From positions 1,950,001 through 1,982,000 of the forward strand of contig OY969938.1 of the NCBI GenBank assembly GCA_963704755.1: 32,000 nucleotides of DNA, read 5' to 3'. The position numbers were made by a program, and so were the translations under genes. Positions 3,229-28,680 of the stretch are shown in pieces. Under the pieces are notes generated by a model that worked only from the letters and a program-made list of their open reading frames with translations, did no database searches and was not told the origin of the DNA. Position 1 is the first letter of the stretch. The number at the start of each line of letters is the position of its first letter. The stretch is from an uncultured Chloroflexia bacterium. GTDB lineage: Bacteria; Chloroflexota; Anaerolineae; Anaerolineales; Anaerolineaceae.

Positions 3229-3261
3229 AGGTAGATCCTTTCAAATATTCAGATAATTGTT

Positions 3262-3371
3262 GTTACTACTCAAGCCGGTTCGGAAATTAGGGGTGTTTTA
3301 TTATTTTTCGTGTGCTTCACACACGAAAAATAATAAAACACCCCGCTTTTTTGCGATAGCTGAGTAATTTC
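3262..3371. repeat. Composite palindromic element: degenerate outer box pair bracketing a 25-bp perfect hairpin (3290-3344)
   Basis: Inner hairpin GGGGTGTTTTATTATTTTTCGTGTG-CTTCA-CACACGAAAAATAATAAAACACCCC, followed by GCTTTTTTGCG. Outer arms GTTACTACTCAAG (3262-3274) and CTGAGTAATTTC (3360-3371) are degenerate copies of the CTGAGYAGTTAC box. Confidence 0.65.
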
Positions 3372-3664
3372 TAATTGTTCGTGATTCTCTCTAAAAAGTA
3401 ATCCGGCTTGTGGTATAGGCCTCCAACACTTCGAATTTGGGCCATTTTTTGGATTTAATCCAGGCAGAAAGGATTCCGGCCGGCCCAAACAGGCGGCATT
3501 GGGCCACAGAATGGGGAAAAACTATTTTATTGATCAGCACAAATAAGGAAGACAGCCGACCCTGTCCGGCTATAGGACGATTCTATCCCATCCGGCGTAG
3601 GTGTCAATCGGCCGGGCAGCTAAAAGGCGGCCTGGCGGATTTATTTAACCTGTTGATAATAGAA

Positions 3665-4432: not shown

Positions 4433-4596
4433 ACATTAGCCTCAGGGCGATTGCAGCCTGCCTGCATTTCGAGGGCAATTCCCCAAAGAGTGGGTTTTTG
4501 AGGGTTATTGTGGGGCGTAGCCCCACAATAACCCTCAAAAATATCTCTTTGTTGGGACTAAATTGGCATGATGCGATTGCCCTGACATTAGCCTCA
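4433..4596 (+). mobile_element. MITE-like non-autonomous element, copy A (140-bp core 4445-4584 plus 12-bp direct repeats)
   Basis: Flanking direct repeat ACATTAGCCTCA at 4433-4444 and 4585-4596. Imperfect terminal inverted repeat GGGCGATTGC...GCGATTGCCC. Central 22-bp perfect hairpin 4495-4541. 133/140 identical to copy B at 24629-24768. Confidence 0.7.
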
Positions 4597-4826
4597 TCCA
4601 TATCGATGAAGCAACTCCTGCCCTAATTATAATGAGATTTGCAGGACCGCTTTGACTGGAAACCGGCGGCCTCATTCCAAGGCAGTGGATTTACATCCCG
4701 GTGCTCACCAGATGAATCAGGCGCTTGACGCCACGGCCGTCAATGAATTAGAACCTCCTGGCTTAGCGTCCCTCTGACGAAGGTATGCCTTTAGTCAATA
4801 ATGTTTGCCTGGTTTGATCCGCACTC

Positions 4827-4866
4827 GCCCTCACCCCAACCCCTCTCCCAGAAGCGGGAGAGGGGC
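4827..4866 (+). repeat. GC-rich CCCTCACCCC...CCCCTCTCCC/GGGAGAGGGG hairpin repeat, copy 1
   Basis: 10-bp stem CCCCTCTCCC (4840-4849) / GGGAGAGGGG (4856-4865). Related copies lie at 5099-5137 (inverted) and 15181-15230. Confidence 0.7.
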
Positions 4867-5040
4867 AGGAAAAGCCTGCTGCGCCGGGTTGGGGGCTATT
4901 TTGGGCCCGGATTCGGTATACCCGGACGGCGGTTACCCCTATCCCCACGCTTCGCGGAGGGAGAAGGCGCTTAATTCTGCTCGCCGGCGAGGCATGCATG
5001 AAAGAGATTCAGGTTGATCTGGTTGTTTTGGGAATGTCCA

Positions 5041-5233
5041 GTGCGGATTTTAGGAGAGGAATCTGGCCCTTCGCTCCAAATCTGTTTTTGATTTCATTCC
5101 CCTCTCCCGTTCTGGGAGAGGGGCCAGGGGTGAGGGCCGGCGCTGGCCGAGAAGTTCCTTAGCCTGCCGGAGACTGCGCCTCCTCCTAACCTCCCCCAAA
5201 ATCCAAAGTGCGGATTTTAGGGGAGGAATCTGG
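5041..5233 (+). repeat. 26-nt direct repeat pair (5041-5066, 5208-5233) bracketing GC-rich hairpin repeat copy 2 (5099-5137, inverted)
   Basis: GTGCGGATTTTAGGAGAGGAATCTGG versus GTGCGGATTTTAGGGGAGGAATCTGG (24/26). Inner hairpin CCCCTCTCCC-GTTCT-GGGAGAGGGG followed by CCAGGGGTGAGGGC. Confidence 0.7.
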
Positions 5234-5310
5234 TCTGCTCGCAAGTAGTGTGGGATGAGACCTCGAAAGATAGACAGTCCAAATCCAGCATCCATAGTAA
5301 AATTTCCTCT

Positions 5311-7135: not shown

Positions 7136-7264
7136 GTAATGCTCAGCCTCACGGCTTAGAGCCTAGAATTAGAGGACTCATTAAAATGTGTCTGAGCAGT
7201 TACCCAGATTTTGAACCATACAAATATCGTAACTACTCATCCTCTACAGTGGCTGAGTAGTTAC
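7136..7264. repeat. Cluster of four CTGAGYAGTTAC boxes forming two small inverted-repeat units
   Basis: GTAATGCTCAGCC (7136-7148) pairs with CTGAGCAGTTAC (7192-7203). GTAACTACTCA (7229-7239) pairs with TGAGTAGTTAC (7254-7264) across a 14-nt spacer. Confidence 0.7.
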
Positions 7265-7464
7265 CAAATATCTTAGATTTTAACCCTGATTGTGACGGTC
7301 TGGCCTTCTCAGGAAAAATATTGTCTAGTTGCCAGGAGAAAGCCATGTAACAAGAACTGGCGCAGCTAAAAGAACCTAAAACTTTCAATGTTAAATATTT
7401 CATTTATAATATTTCAGATAGAGATTATAGTTAATAGAAACCGTTCCATCAAAGGGGTAAGAAA

Positions 7465-7516
7465 CCGAATTTGAGGTGTGTGGTGGGCACAGCCTACGCA
7501 TCCACCTCAAATTTGG
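7465..7516. repeat. Decayed member of the CGAATTTGAG hairpin family
   Basis: AATTTGAGGTG (7468-7478) pairs with CACCTCAAATT (7503-7513). The inner part is no longer palindromic. The left flank GGGTAAGAAACCGAATTTGAG resembles the reverse complement of the right flank of the 28562 copy. Confidence 0.6.
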
Positions 7517-7553
7517 GCCCCCTTTAGCCAATGAAACTGCAACGAGGTGAAAA

Positions 7554-11118: not shown

Positions 11119-11566
11119 GGGAAGACGCCGGCCGAAAAGATGCATTGGCTATTTGGCCATTGCTATAAACGGCTGGCCGCGCCCCTCACCTGGCCTGTCC
11201 CCGTCGTTTTGTATTGACCGGGTAAGAACACGTTCGTGGCAGCATATACAAGGTCTGAGTAGCTTCTCGCATATCCTATCAGTACTATTAGGTGGGATAA
11301 GCGCTCATCGATCATGAAAAACCTATCAGCAGACAAACTGGCGGAATTTGCGCGAATCAGATTTAGGATACGTTGGCAACGCACCAAAAGCATCGGCTTT
11401 TCATATAATTTAGTTACGAATGAATCGGGTTGGGGTACGATGGGAACACGAAAGTAAGCCAAACCAATAACAATTCCATGACCAGCCCGTGCCCAGGGTT
11501 GTTTGCTGTCCAAGCTCTATGGAACTTATTATCCCCTGCAATTGTGTTTTGTCGGAGTTAAAAGAA

Positions 11567-12515: not shown

Positions 12516-12579
12516 ATTGAACTAGCGGAATTTGTATAAATTCCGCTAGTTCAATTGGATGAATTTATACAAATTCCGC
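12516..12579. repeat. 18-bp perfect hairpin plus a third arm able to form an alternative 19-bp helix
   Basis: ATTGAACTAGCGGAATTT-GTAT-AAATTCCGCTAGTTCAAT (12516-12555). 12561-12579 (GAATTTATACAAATTCCGC) is the exact reverse complement of 12525-12543. Confidence 0.7.
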
Positions 12580-12622
12580 CAATACACTATAATTGACTTG
12601 AATCCAAAGCGAGGGGAACCTC

Positions 12623-13294
12623 ATGGAGCTCAATCGAAAATTCTGGAATGAACGGCAGCAGGCCCTGCGTCTGGCGCTGCGCGACCCGGCGGACCACCCG
12701 CAGGCGGTCGCGTTGTTCCTCGACCAGCACGCCATGGTCCACACGGCCGGTATGGCACAGTCCGGGTTGTGGTCCTTCGAGGACGAAGTCTGGCAGGGGC
12801 TGGACGAAGCCGCCGCACGCCAGGTACCGCCTAAACTGGAGCATTCCGTCGCCTGGACTACCTTCCACCTGGCCCGCATCGAGGATGTAACCATGAACCT
12901 GCTGCTGGTCGGCAGCCCACAGGTTTTCCGGCAGAGCGGCTGGATGGATCGATTGGGGATCCGCCTGGCGCATACCGGCAACGGCATGGACGAGCCGGCG
13001 GTCAGCGACTTTAGCGAGCAGGTGCATCTGGCTGCCCTGCGCGCCTACCGCCTGGCGGTAGGGCAGCGCACCCGCGAGATTGTCGGCCAAATCGACGCGC
13101 AAGCGCTGCGCCAAAAAGTTCAGCCGGCCCGCCTGCAACGGGTCCTGGACGAAGGGGCACTGGTCGAGGAAGCCCGCGGCCTGCTGGATTACTGGGGCGG
13201 GCTGACCGGCGCCGGCTTGCTGCTGATGCCGCCCACACGCCACAATTTCGTCCACCTCAACGAGGCATTGCGGATCTTAAAAAAGATGAAATAA
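12623..13294 (+). CDS. DinB-family (DinB_2-like) protein
   Basis: HSVAWTTFHLARIEDV is a typical DinB-fold helix with a His ligand. GAGGGG lies 6 nt upstream of the ATG. Confidence 0.7.
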   Translation: MELNRKFWNERQQALRLALRDPADHPQAVALFLDQHAMVHTAGMAQSGLWSFEDEVWQGLDEAAARQVPPKLEHSVAWTTFHLARIEDVTMNLLLVGSPQVFRQSGWMDRLGIRLAHTGNGMDEPAVSDFSEQVHLAALRAYRLAVGQRTREIVGQIDAQALRQKVQPARLQRVLDEGALVEEARGLLDYWGGLTGAGLLLMPPTRHNFVHLNEALRILKKMK

Positions 13295-13336
13295 ACGTTT
13301 TGGTGCGACATAGGCGCACCAAAACGTTTATTTCAT
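13286..13336 (+). repeat. 22-bp perfect stem hairpin overlapping the DinB stop codon
   Basis: ATGAAATAAACGTTTTGGTGCG-ACATAGG-CGCACCAAAACGTTTATTTCAT. No T-run follows, so terminator function is uncertain. Confidence 0.6.
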
Positions 13337-13357
13337 CCGGTTGGTGCTTGACTCCAA

Positions 13358-13403
13358 TAAATAAACAGTGTATATTTATATATAAATATACACTGTTTAT
13401 TTA
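13358..13403. repeat. 46-bp perfect loop-less AT-rich palindrome
   Basis: TAAATAAACAGTGTATATTTATA|TATAAATATACACTGTTTATTTA; the 23-bp arms were checked base by base. Confidence 0.85.
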
Positions 13404-13430
13404 AAAACCGCATAACCCAACGGAATAGAA

Positions 13431-13487
13431 TCTCGAAATTGAGGTGTTTGCAGGGACTTCGTCCCTGCAAACACCTCAATTTCGAGA
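13431..13487. repeat. 27-bp perfect stem, TTC loop: CGAAATTGAG hairpin family member
   Basis: TCTCGAAATTGAGGTGTTTGCAGGGAC-TTC-GTCCCTGCAAACACCTCAATTTCGAGA. Ends 49 nt upstream of the TetR start. Confidence 0.85.
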
Positions 13488-13535
13488 ACTTCTTAAAATA
13501 CGCCTGAGTTGGCGCGTTTATTGATTGGAGTAACC

Positions 13536-14234: not shown

Positions 14235-15155
14235 ATGAACGAATTCCACCTGATTTTTGGAACCGGCCCGTTGGGCAAATCTACTGCCCGTGAATTGGTC
14301 CGCCTGGGCAAGCAGGTACGCATGGTCAACCGCTCCGGCCAGGCCAGCGGACTGCCCGAAAGCGTACAGATCCTGGCCGCGGATGCCTACAACACGGCCA
14401 ACAACATTATCCTGACCCAGGGTGCGGCGGCGGTCTATCAATGCGCCCAACCGGCTTACTACGATTGGGCCGAGAAATTCCCCTCTTTGCAAAGCGCCAT
14501 CCTGGAAGCGGCCGCGGCCAACGGCGCCAAGCTGATCGTCGGCGACAACCTGTACATGTACGGCGCCTTCCGCGGCGCGCTGCGCGAGGACTCTCCGCTG
14601 AACCCCAACACGCGTAAAGGCAAGGTCCGCGCGGAAATGGCCGGCCAGGTCATGGACGCTCACCAACAAGGCCGGCTGCGCGCGGCCGTCGGGCGGGCGT
14701 CGGACTTCTTCGGCCCGGACGATCATGGCCTGACCGGTTACCTGATCCGCCCGGCCGTGTCCGGCAAGCCGGCCAGCCTGCTCGGGCGGCTCGACCAGCC
14801 CCATACCTACACCTACGTCAACGACTTTGGCCGGCTGTTAGCCACCCTGGGCACTCACGACGAAGCCCTGGGCCAGATCTGGTTTACGCCCAGCAGCCCG
14901 GCCGTGACCCAGGCTGAATTCATCCGCCTGCTGGAGGCAGAGCTGGGCCACCCGGTCAAGACCATGGTCGCCGGCCCGCTGATGGTGGGCCTGCTGGGCC
15001 TGTTCAACAAGGAGATCCGCGAGACCGCCGAAATGCTGTTCGAGTGGCAAATGCCCTACGTGGTGGATACCGGTAAGGCCGAGCAAGCCTTTGGGCTGCG
15101 GCCCACCCTGCTCGAAGAGGCCATCCACGAGACGGTGGCCTGGCTGAAGGCTTAG
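14235..15155 (+). CDS. NAD(P)-binding epimerase/dehydratase-like (atypical SDR) protein
   Basis: The ATG directly abuts the TetR stop. N-terminal Rossmann motif IFGTGPLGKSTAREL. Confidence 0.75.
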   Translation: MNEFHLIFGTGPLGKSTARELVRLGKQVRMVNRSGQASGLPESVQILAADAYNTANNIILTQGAAAVYQCAQPAYYDWAEKFPSLQSAILEAAAANGAKLIVGDNLYMYGAFRGALREDSPLNPNTRKGKVRAEMAGQVMDAHQQGRLRAAVGRASDFFGPDDHGLTGYLIRPAVSGKPASLLGRLDQPHTYTYVNDFGRLLATLGTHDEALGQIWFTPSSPAVTQAEFIRLLEAELGHPVKTMVAGPLMVGLLGLFNKEIRETAEMLFEWQMPYVVDTGKAEQAFGLRPTLLEEAIHETVAWLKA

Positions 15156-22462: not shown

Positions 22463-23481
22463 TTACTTTGGAGCTTGCCCGCTGGAATGGCGGACGATTA
22501 ACTCCGGTTTAAGAATGACTTGCTGCTCTTCCAGTTTTTCTGCGCGCAGAGTTCGAATGAGCATTTCACAAACACGACTGCCGATCTGGTAAACCGGCTG
22601 CTTCAAGGTCGTCAGGGGCGGGTGGGAATGTTCGGCCATGGGGATATCGTCGAAACCGGTAATGGATATCTCCTTCCCAACCGTCAGGCCCTGATCTTGG
22701 GCAGCGCTCATCGCCCCGAAAGCCATCAGGTCATTACAGCAAAGGATGGCGCTGGGAGGGTCAGACAAATTGAGCAGGTGGTTGGCCACTTCGTAGCCGC
22801 CCGCCTGGGTCAAATCGCCCTGGATGAACCATTCACCCCGGATGGGCAGGTTCAATTCCTCCATCCGCATACGTACCCCGGATAAGCGGTGGGGGAAAAA
22901 TTCAAGTCCGTCGGTGGATAGATGCAGGCAATGGCGCGGTGCCCCAGCTCGTGGAGGTGGTCCACTGCCAGGCGCATCCCGAACTCGGAATCCTCATCCA
23001 CAAAGGGGAAATCGAGCGGCCCTTCCGTGCGGCCGAAGGCCGCAAAAGGGAACCTGGCCGCGCGTAAATAGCTGATACGCGGGTCTTGCTTGCGCGTGCG
23101 CACGATGATAAACCCATCCACGCGTTGGCTTTGCACATTGTGCCGGTAAGCCTGTAATTCCCGCTCTCCTGGCGGATGGGTCGAAACGAGCATGTCGTAG
23201 CCAAACTGAGCGGCCTTGTTGCCCACACCGGCGATGAACTCGCTGAAAAACGGGTCCGAAAAACGCGGCCCAAAGGTGGGCAGGATCAGACCGAGCGTAT
23301 CGGTGTGCTGTTTTTGCAGGCGCTGGGCCATCGAGTTGGGGCTGTAGCCCATCTCCGCCGCCACTTTGCGGACCAATTCCTTCGTCTCCGGGCTGACGTC
23401 GTCGTAATCGGCCAGTGCCCTGGACACGGTAGTGATGGATTTTCCAACCTGGCGAGCAATATCCTTGATCGTCGGCGACAC
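22463..23481 (-). pseudogene. LacI-family transcriptional regulator interrupted by a frameshift, or affected by a homopolymer sequencing error
   Basis: The N-terminal HTH and first half are in ORF 22852-23481 (IKDIARQVGKSITTVSRAL). The C-terminal half is in ORF 22463-22870, in another frame that stays open upstream through 22917. The frames meet at the plus-strand run GGGGGAAAAA (22891-22900). GTG start with AGGAG 5 nt upstream. Confidence 0.8.
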
Positions 23482-23570: not shown

Positions 23571-23664
23571 CTATTTTTGGGAGAAACCAGAAAATGCAAT
23601 TATTTTGTAACCGCTCAGACCGTTCTACAGGAACAGCATGTCAACTGCCGTCGCCTGACCCAAA

Positions 23665-24616: not shown

Positions 24617-24780
24617 CTGTTAACGCCAGGGCGATTGCAGCCTGCCTGCTTTTCGAGGGCAATTCCCCAAAGAATGGGTTTTTGAGTGTTATTGTGGGGC
24701 GTAGCCCCACAATAACACTCAAAATTATCTCTCTGTTGGGGCTAAATTGGCATGATGCGATTGCCCTGCTGTTAACGCCA
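24617..24780 (+). mobile_element. MITE-like element, copy B (140-bp core 24629-24768 plus 12-bp direct repeats)
   Basis: Direct repeat CTGTTAACGCCA at 24617-24628 and 24769-24780. Same termini and central hairpin (24680-24724) as copy A. Confidence 0.7.
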
Positions 24781-24781
24781 A

Positions 24782-24835
24782 CGGGTTATGCGGTATTTTT
24801 GGCCGGCGCGCCGGCCAAAAATACCGCATAACCCG
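24782..24835. repeat. 54-bp perfect loop-less palindrome (27-bp arms)
   Basis: CGGGTTATGCGGTATTTTTGGCCGGCG|CGCCGGCCAAAAATACCGCATAACCCG. A solo 12-mer ACCGCATAACCC also occurs at about 13407-13418. Confidence 0.85.
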
Positions 24836-26327: not shown

Positions 26328-26723
26328 TAGGATGCCGTAGCACAGGATTGTGGAAAAATTATTCTTTAAAAAATTGAAAATTGGCTCAAAAAAGGGGATT
26401 GTCTTGTCTTTGATGCTTCTGAAAAAAAGAGGCAGTTCTGTTCTTGACCATTGGAATACTCAAGTTTCTCGGACTGGAAATTTATTTTGGAAAGGCTCGG
26501 CTTCTGGTAACAAGGGAATAAGAAGCAATTTGATGGCAGGTTCCCGCAAATAATGCCCATCTATCCCCAAAAGCCCTTGGAAAACATTCTATCACATCCT
26601 CGAAAGTGGGTTGTAATGAAAGAAAGGGGCTCAGTGGACCCTCACCACGGCAAATCCCCAAAACCCAAAAAAGGCGACTGCTCAGCCGTCGCAGCATCAG
26701 AACTTGCTTGAGCAGCTACAAAA

Positions 26724-26760
26724 GGAGGTCGAAGCGCCACGTTGCAGCGCTTCGACCTCC
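26724..26760 (-). terminator. Probable Rho-independent terminator of pdxST
   Basis: GGAGGTCGAAGCGC-9 nt-GCGCTTCGACCTCC (14-bp stem), followed on the minus strand by TTTTG. Confidence 0.55.
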
Positions 26761-28494: not shown

Positions 28495-28523
28495 TTGACG
28501 CAGCATCCCCGCTATGTTAAAAT
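28495..28523 (+). promoter_or_regulatory. Sigma-70-type promoter candidate for the histidine kinase/regulator pair
   Basis: TTGACG (28495-28500), a 17-nt spacer, then TAAAAT (28518-28523). Confidence 0.45.
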
Positions 28524-28534
28524 AAGTTAAGAAA

Positions 28535-28645
28535 TAACTACTCAGGCTCCTATCAAAGATTCCCCGAATTTGAGATGTTTGCGAGGGCTTCGCCCTCGCA
28601 AACATCTCAAATTCGGGGTTCTTACCCGTTTGGCTGAGCAGTTAC
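28535..28645. repeat. Composite element: CTGAGYAGTTAC box pair bracketing a 27-bp perfect hairpin (28562-28618) of the CGAATTTGAG family
   Basis: TAACTACTCAG (28535-28545) ... CCCCGAATTTGAGATGTTTGCGAGGGC-TTC-GCCCTCGCAAACATCTCAAATTCGGGG ... CTGAGCAGTTAC (28634-28645). Confidence 0.85.
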
Positions 28646-28680
28646 GTTAAGAGAAAATCAAACCGGGTTCCGCCATCGCA

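Follow-up and report, generated by a model that had tools for sequence, protein, structure and literature searches.

Inverted pairs of a 12-bp box in intergenic DNA of an Anaerolineaceae bacterium are very probably miniature elements with ISBst12-group ends

Why should the same 12 nucleotides recur, often as inverted pairs, between the genes of a single bacterium? The window analysed here is a stretch of 32,000 nucleotides from an uncultured member of the Anaerolineaceae. With up to two mismatches allowed, the box CTGAGYAGTTAC has 13 matches in it, against 1.79 ± 1.31 expected from 100 dinucleotide-preserving shuffles, none of which (0/100) reached 13. An earlier note on this DNA had listed 12 copies, all of which are present, with coordinates off by 2 nt at most, and had proposed the comparison with a shuffled background by which the box now proves to be enriched in the window. 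It had also placed the box only in intergenic DNA. This holds for 11 of the 13 matches, in a window whose intergenic share is about 19% on a gene map drawn from Pfam-supported ORFs; the two matches in coding DNA, at 14730 and 24531, are as many as chance would give. A twelfth copy, GTAATGCTCAG at 7136-7146, carries a 1-nt deletion. In these 32 kb there are five inverted pairs (3262-3371, 7136-7203, 7229-7264, 26674-26719 and 28534-28645), along with two unpaired ends and two or three copies that have decayed.

The first clue stands immediately outside the boxes, where the earlier reader had overlooked it. At three of the five pairs in the window an 8-bp sequence is directly repeated on either side (8/8, 8/8 and 7/8 identical), and such repeats at box pairs are a signature of transposition. 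It is because of them that the window pairs are read as MITEs of 36-112 bp, none of which has been assigned a strand. Element B, a 36-bp MITE at 7229-7264 made of GTAACTACTCAT, 12 nt and CTGAGTAGTTAC, sits between perfect copies of CAAATATC (7221-7228 and 7265-7272, 8/8), and as single-stranded DNA it is predicted to fold with an 11-bp stem (z = -4.5). Element C, a 110-bp long form at 3262-3371, consists of GTTACTACTCAA, 16 nt, a perfect hairpin with 25-bp arms (3290-3344), 15 nt and CTGAGTAATTTC; it lies between perfect copies of TAATTGTT (3254-3261 and 3372-3379, 8/8), with its left end 33 nt upstream of the start of a DUF362 gene (3228). Element D, a 112-bp long form at 28534-28645, has the same plan: ATAACTACTCAG, 16 nt, a perfect hairpin with 27-bp arms (28562-28618), 15 nt and CTGAGCAGTTAC. 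Its flanks, GTTAAGAA (28526-28533) and GTTAAGAG (28646-28653), agree at 7/8 (GTTAAGAa/g; GTAAAGAA-type), and its right end is 35 nt upstream of the ATG of a histidine kinase (28681). The hairpins at 3290-3344 and 28562-28618 are indeed unrelated in sequence, as the earlier note had said. Directly upstream of element D, at 28495-28523, lies a promoter-like TTGACG-17-TAAAAT with an extended TG; if this site is used, the histidine kinase mRNA would carry the whole 112-bp element in its 5′ leader.

The remaining two pairs have no clear duplication. Element A, a 68-bp MITE at 7136-7203, is made of the shortened box GTAATGCTCAG, 45 nt and CTGAGCAGTTAC; its flanking duplication is degenerate (cAGAATTcg against CCAGATTT), and its left end is 27 nt upstream of the start codon of the acetate kinase gene (7108). 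Element E, an eroded MITE of 46 bp at 26674-26719 (GCGACTGCTCAG, 22 nt, TTGAGCAGCTAC), lies within an A-tract that adjoins a terminator-like hairpin (26724-26760) downstream of pdxT, and its A-rich flanks are alike only loosely. Two boxes stand by themselves. One is a right end at 11255-11266 on the + strand (CTGAGTAGCTTC, two mismatches), for which no convincing partner box was found; the other is a left end at 23607-23618 on the - strand (GTAACCGCTCAG as written on the + strand, one mismatch), upstream of the promoter of a LacI-family gene, for which a partner box was likewise looked for and not found. Both are probably remnants of eroded elements. Since several of the window ends carry one or two mismatches, many of the insertions are probably old, and the activity itself may be ancient, because two of the five pairs have no clear duplication and several boxes have two mismatches.

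To which transposon, then, do these ends belong? The IS66-family element ISDge4 of Deinococcus geothermalis, a member of the ISBst12 group, terminates in GTGACTACTCAGCA and GTAACTGCTCAGCA, is flanked by a direct repeat of 8 bp and encodes a transposase of 449 aa; its transposition has been observed, and its donor copies persist, a behaviour termed “copy-and-paste” (PMC12898284). The box itself forms the first 12 bp at both ends of two full-length elements, one on a Bacillus mycoides plasmid (L153; both ends GTAACTACTCAGCC, duplication AAAAATTT) and one in a Dethiobacteria MAG (L123; ends GTAACTGCTCAGCC and GTAACTACTCAGCT, duplication AAATATAT). It is 1-3 nt away from the ends of ISDge4 and of several others: the 1635-bp element of Geobacillus pHTA426 (L120; ends GTATCTATTCAGCCC and GTAACTATTCAGCCC, duplication GACGAGTT), two elements with variant ends (L122, duplication CTTTTGTT; L124, duplication ATAAAAAG), ISBst12 itself (L130; GTAACTATTCAGCC, with a duplication that is not identical at this copy) and four of six copies on viral contigs (L133 and L137-L139). 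All six viral-contig copies (L131-L133 and L137-L139) have variant ends and 8-bp duplications, and their transposases are 32-89% identical. A relative in Streptomyces has a more diverged end, GTAAGCATTCAG, and retains the 8-bp duplication, which is present in 11 cases among the parent ISs. Each full-length element has one ORF, with DUF6444, zf-IS66 and DDE_Tnp_IS66 domains; the pHTA426 transposase, which has all three, also matches the NCBIfam model transpos_IS66.

Because these full-length relatives end in the box or in a variant 1-3 nt away from it, we hold with high confidence that ISBst12-group ISs have the box as their 12-bp terminal inverted repeat (GTAACTRCTCAG, of which CTGAGYAGTTAC is the reverse complement) and that the pairs are non-autonomous MITEs of 36-112 bp. 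The group and the window elements have in common the termini GTAACT(A/G)CTCAG, with T at position 8 in some IS members, the 8-bp target-site duplication and the occurrence of A at one end of an element and G at the other. The window elements differ in their size of 36-112 bp, in having no transposase gene and in showing no similarity to the interior of a full-length IS. The earlier description, a modular element with conserved termini and a swappable palindromic cargo, was sound as to structure, the interior being freely variable and often palindromic. Where it fell short was in not recognising a described class: the ends and the 8-bp duplication make these elements MITEs of the ISBst12 group. 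MITEs derived from known IS groups are a familiar kind of object. None with these particular ends was found described in the open-access literature, and a full-text search for the box sequence brought up one relevant paper, that on ISDge4 (PMC12898284).

How widely are such pairs distributed? When one genome of each species was scanned for exact matches to GTAACTRCTCAG-N(8-38)-CTGAGYAGTTAC, the pair turned up at no fewer than 119 places, in at least a dozen phyla; by our own arithmetic, chance would give about 0.3. The matches listed come from Chloroflexota (many Anaerolineae, and Ktedonobacter), Verrucomicrobiota, Bacteroidota, Bacillota, Acidobacteriota, Planctomycetota, Alpha-, Gamma- and Zetaproteobacteria, Nitrospirota, Desulfobacterota, Elusimicrobiota and others. 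Among these listed matches, the flanks are at least 7/8 identical in 48 of 114 testable pairs, and in none of the 114 (0/114) when the next 8 nt outward are taken as a control; the duplicated target sites are about 70% A+T. Again among the matches listed, the interiors are lineage-specific, and those of the window match none of the other loci; the window copies also differ in their interiors from one another. Within single genomes, identical interiors of 49 bp and 61 bp lie at several sites with differing duplications, and therefore at least those sizes spread as units; one interior at different sites with different duplications is found in the Anaerolineae MAG RH-23may17-496 and in a Verrucomicrobiota MAG. 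Sequence conservation of the box ends exactly at position 12. At position 7, 62% of copies have A and 38% have G, so that the motif reads GTAG or GCAG. This position covaries between the two ends of a pair (91 symmetric against 28 mixed pairs, odds ratio 8.7, over the 119 loci listed, whose copies are not independent), and full-length ISs often have A at this position at one end and G at the other. The box pairs thus have the ends of an IS and 8-bp duplications, are non-coding and multi-copy, and are spread over phyla.

A Verrucomicrobiota MAG (L046, L076, L085 and L110) has several contigs that stop 3 nt past the element, each time with the same ‘gga’, which suggests assembly breaks at a multi-copy repeat containing the MITE. 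At the 119 loci listed, boxes paired at a distance of 0.7-4 kb and ORFs adjoining the boxes were looked for, and neither a full-length element nor a transposase gene next to any of these copies was found; the candidate ORFs beside the boxes are housekeeping genes, and the sole trace of a transposase is a fragment in one locus (L027). As for the host of the window, whose contig measures 4,871,623 bp, the nearest homologue of its acetate kinase is 74% identical, and the nearest named homologues belong to Anaerolineales, Longilinea and Leptolinea, at 66-70% identity.

The mechanism we propose is as follows. A DDE transposase of the ISBst12 type, encoded elsewhere in the genome or formerly present, would recognise both 12-bp ends and, acting in trans, would move the element into A+T-rich intergenic DNA, where repair of a staggered 8-bp cut in the target would leave the 8-bp direct repeat. 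Only the termini would be required, so that the interior could drift freely and come to differ between lineages. In Anaerolineae the long form, of about 111 bp, carries a central perfect hairpin; shorter forms would be produced from it by deletion, and single and mismatched boxes would be the eroded ends of old insertions. The window elements contain no ORF and show no transposase similarity, and a domain scan found no transposase gene among the window ORFs; mobilisation in trans is what we infer for this particular genome.

The relation between long and short forms is best followed in the other Anaerolineae loci, which fall into the same two size classes, here of 61 bp and 111-112 bp. The long form (L061, L074 twice, and L102) is laid out as in the window: a perfect hairpin of 25 bp, its loop 3 nt long, has 16-18 nt to its left and 15-18 nt to its right, with 12 bp at either end. 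In the short form of related Anaerolineae, 9-10 nt from the start of the left hairpin arm (cgcgaaaca) survive, and for this reason a passage from long to short by deletion of the hairpin is the simpler one: the shorter forms are most simply deletion derivatives of the long form of about 111 bp. In the window, the hairpin of element D has three further family members (1932, 7465 and 13431), which would be old long-form copies with decayed ends. The candidate at 13403-13515 is probably such a copy. It measures 113 bp, again with no strand assigned, and reads as 12 nt, 16 nt, a perfect 27-bp hairpin (13431-13487), 16 nt and the right end CTGAGTTGGCGC (13504-13515, 8/12); its left box is eroded beyond recognition, and GTTTATTT (13395-13402) and GTTTATTG (13516-13523), which agree at 7/8, stand at exactly the expected positions. 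The stretch at 1932-2001, also without strand, may be a truncated copy, with a hairpin (1932-1984, terminator-like on the - strand), 5 nt and the possible right-end remnant CCGCGAAGTTAC (1990-2001, 9/12). The last, at 7430-7550 (no strand), has an imperfect hairpin at about 7464-7516 and a left spacer resembling that of element D (TTCCATCAAAG against TCCTATCAAAG), a likeness that only faintly hints at a decayed long form.

The hairpins have a history of their own. Between members of these families (28562-28618, 13431-13487, 1932-1984 and 7464-7516 in the window; L061 at 4234, L074 at 1819 and L102 at 172 elsewhere) the arms differ at 4-7 of 25-27 positions, and all of the changes are mirrored on the opposite arm, so that each copy is a perfect palindrome with no G:T pair. 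Quasi-palindromes are known to mutate by template switching, which would explain the mirrored changes without anything new. That the hairpins remain perfect while the adjoining transposon ends decay suggests either arm-to-arm template switching or strong selection, for example through domestication as terminators.

Could the long perfect hairpins, in line with the hairpin recruitment of the earlier note, rather be a separate mobile or self-generating module that inserts into the middle of an already existing short MITE, the long forms being composites? Members of the 28562 family do occur outside intact pairs (1932, 7465 and 13431), an unrelated 149-nt MITE has a central perfect hairpin built alike, with an A+T-rich base and the tip GGGGC-NNN-GCCCC, and no flanks could be recognised at several further long perfect hairpins. 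We nevertheless consider this unlikely: insertion would need a coincidence to account for the 9-10 nt of left arm kept in the short form, the layout of 16 nt, hairpin and 15-16 nt is constant at 110-113 bp in six elements from four records, the hairpins outside pairs show box remnants (9/12 and 8/12) and, at 13431, a 7/8 duplication, at the distances expected, and the hairpins themselves have no duplication flanking them. Internal deletion of an IS is the accepted origin of MITEs, and each pair might accordingly be a full-length IS that lost its interior in place and was never mobile as a miniature. The mutually different interiors of the window copies would fit, as would the smallest forms, of 32-36 bp, which may be too short for transposition. 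Against it, two window elements and four others from Anaerolineae share one precise architecture and length, and the 49-bp and 61-bp interiors are identical at several sites with different duplications in single genomes. As a general account this is decidedly improbable; taken form by form, it is unlikely for the long and the 49-61-bp elements and possible for those of 32-36 bp, which are very short for a conventional paired-end complex and may have arisen by deletion in place instead of moving as units.

Two further readings concern regulation and REP/RAYT repeats. The box might be conserved to regulate the neighbouring genes, as an operator dyad bound by a transcription factor or as an RNA stem acting in cis: the box arms can pair, and three boxes (3262, 7136 and 28634) lie 27-35 nt upstream of starts, facing the gene. 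However, the arms are anything from 8 to 88 nt apart, the interior shows no conservation, the genes next to the boxes have no relation to one another, Rfam covariance models run over the whole window at gathering thresholds gave no match, and the identical 12-mer occurs with target duplications in a dozen or more phyla, all of which makes such a role very improbable. The spacing, the duplications, the unrelated genes and the many phyla equally tell against the suggestion in the earlier note of a protein-binding dyad that recruits hairpins. A promoter or 5′-UTR element was dismissed on the target duplications and the spread across phyla, and attC, dif, CRISPR and operator on anatomy. The same note had seen in the internal GTAG a reminder of the REP/RAYT head motif, and REP/REPIN repeats mobilised by RAYT, an IS200/IS605-like Y1 transposase for which GTAG is the recognition head, are indeed intergenic and come as palindromic pairs, with GTAG present in one variant of the box. 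This is scarcely credible here, even less so than regulation. About 38% of the copies read GCAG, the HUH/Y1 mechanism does not produce 8-bp target duplications, IS66-family elements have ends identical to the box, and no RAYT or Y1 gene, which the note had advised seeking in the genome, and no Y1_Tnp domain was found among the window ORFs scanned.

With the pairs read as MITEs of the ISBst12 group, their likeness to other bacterial repeats can be set out. Like Correia, RUP, ERIC, Nezha and Chunjie, they are non-coding, have terminal inverted repeats matching those of an IS and a flanking target duplication, prefer A+T-rich intergenic sites and form strong predicted hairpins (review PMC3184786). 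Most described MITEs measure 100-400 bp and are confined to a genus or family (PMC3184786), whereas the elements here go down to 32-36 bp, are conserved over 12 bp only and have termini found across many phyla. REP and REPIN sequences are also short intergenic palindromes, often in inverted pairs, but no duplication of the target accompanies them, and the transposase they go with is of the Y1 (HUH) type, in contrast to the 8-bp duplications and DDE-type IS ends seen here. In very small size there is a likeness to the small dispersed repeats (SDRs) of Nostoc punctiforme, which, as reported by Elhai and colleagues in 2008, are tens of bases long, can nest in other repeats and show compensatory changes in their stems; they are not known to have terminal inverted repeats matching an IS, in which they would differ from our elements, and were reportedly proposed to move through RNA.

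It is tempting to see in all this an undescribed pan-bacterial superfamily of ultra-small MITEs, reaching down to 32-36 bp and defined only by a 12-bp ISBst12-type terminus, and we regard the idea as rather doubtful. If the 32-36-bp forms do move as units, their length would not allow looping into either a paired-end complex or a circle of double-stranded DNA, which, if true, would constrain the still uncharacterised mechanism of the IS66 family towards a linear or hairpin intermediate. Such tiny copies, with their strict 12-bp conservation, would make simple substrates for studying the poorly understood IS66/ISBst12 transposase. For annotation, a rule combining the 12-mer with the 8-bp duplication accounts for many unexplained intergenic palindromes, here and in a dozen or more phyla. 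Three insertions lie 27-35 nt upstream of starts (DUF362, acetate kinase and histidine kinase), and leaders or promoters may consequently be reshaped. Of some interest are how widely the elements are distributed, how small they can be and how perfectly their hairpins are kept; nothing here should surprise a specialist in mobile elements.

The window holds other repeats as well. The second, unrelated MITE-like repeat, of 149 nt, is present at 4436-4584 and 24620-24768 with 93% identity between the copies; it has inverted ends (GGGCGATTGCA.../...GCGATTGCCC), 10-bp direct repeats at its flanks (ATTAGCCTCA at one site, GTTAACGCCA at the other) and central perfect hairpins (4495-4541 and 24680-24724) that differ by one mirrored substitution. 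More long perfect palindromes lie in intergenic DNA at 2004-2044, 12516-12586, 13285-13337, 13358-13403, 24782-24835 and 26724-26760, with arms of 17-27 bp, loops of 0-9 nt and no recognisable transposon ends, and some palindromes at gene ends are terminator-like (for example 26760-26724, after pdxT, and 13334-13288). The LacI-family regulator (22463-23481, - strand) is split into two overlapping ORFs, one at 22852-23481 with the HTH and the N-terminal sugar-binding part and one at 22463-22870 with the C-terminal part; the split is due to a frameshift, which reflects either a pseudogene or an error in sequencing. Upstream of this gene, operator-like palindromes CCAAAACGTTTTGG overlap a promoter-like TTGACT-17-TATTAT. 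Finally, in the region 4600-5250, where no Pfam-supported gene was found, a 27-nt direct repeat occurs at 5040-5066 and 5207-5233 (96% identical), with inverted repeats of the GGGAGAGGGG/CCCCTCTCCC type between the two copies, and further stretches are listed with it at 4830-4870 and 5098-5135.
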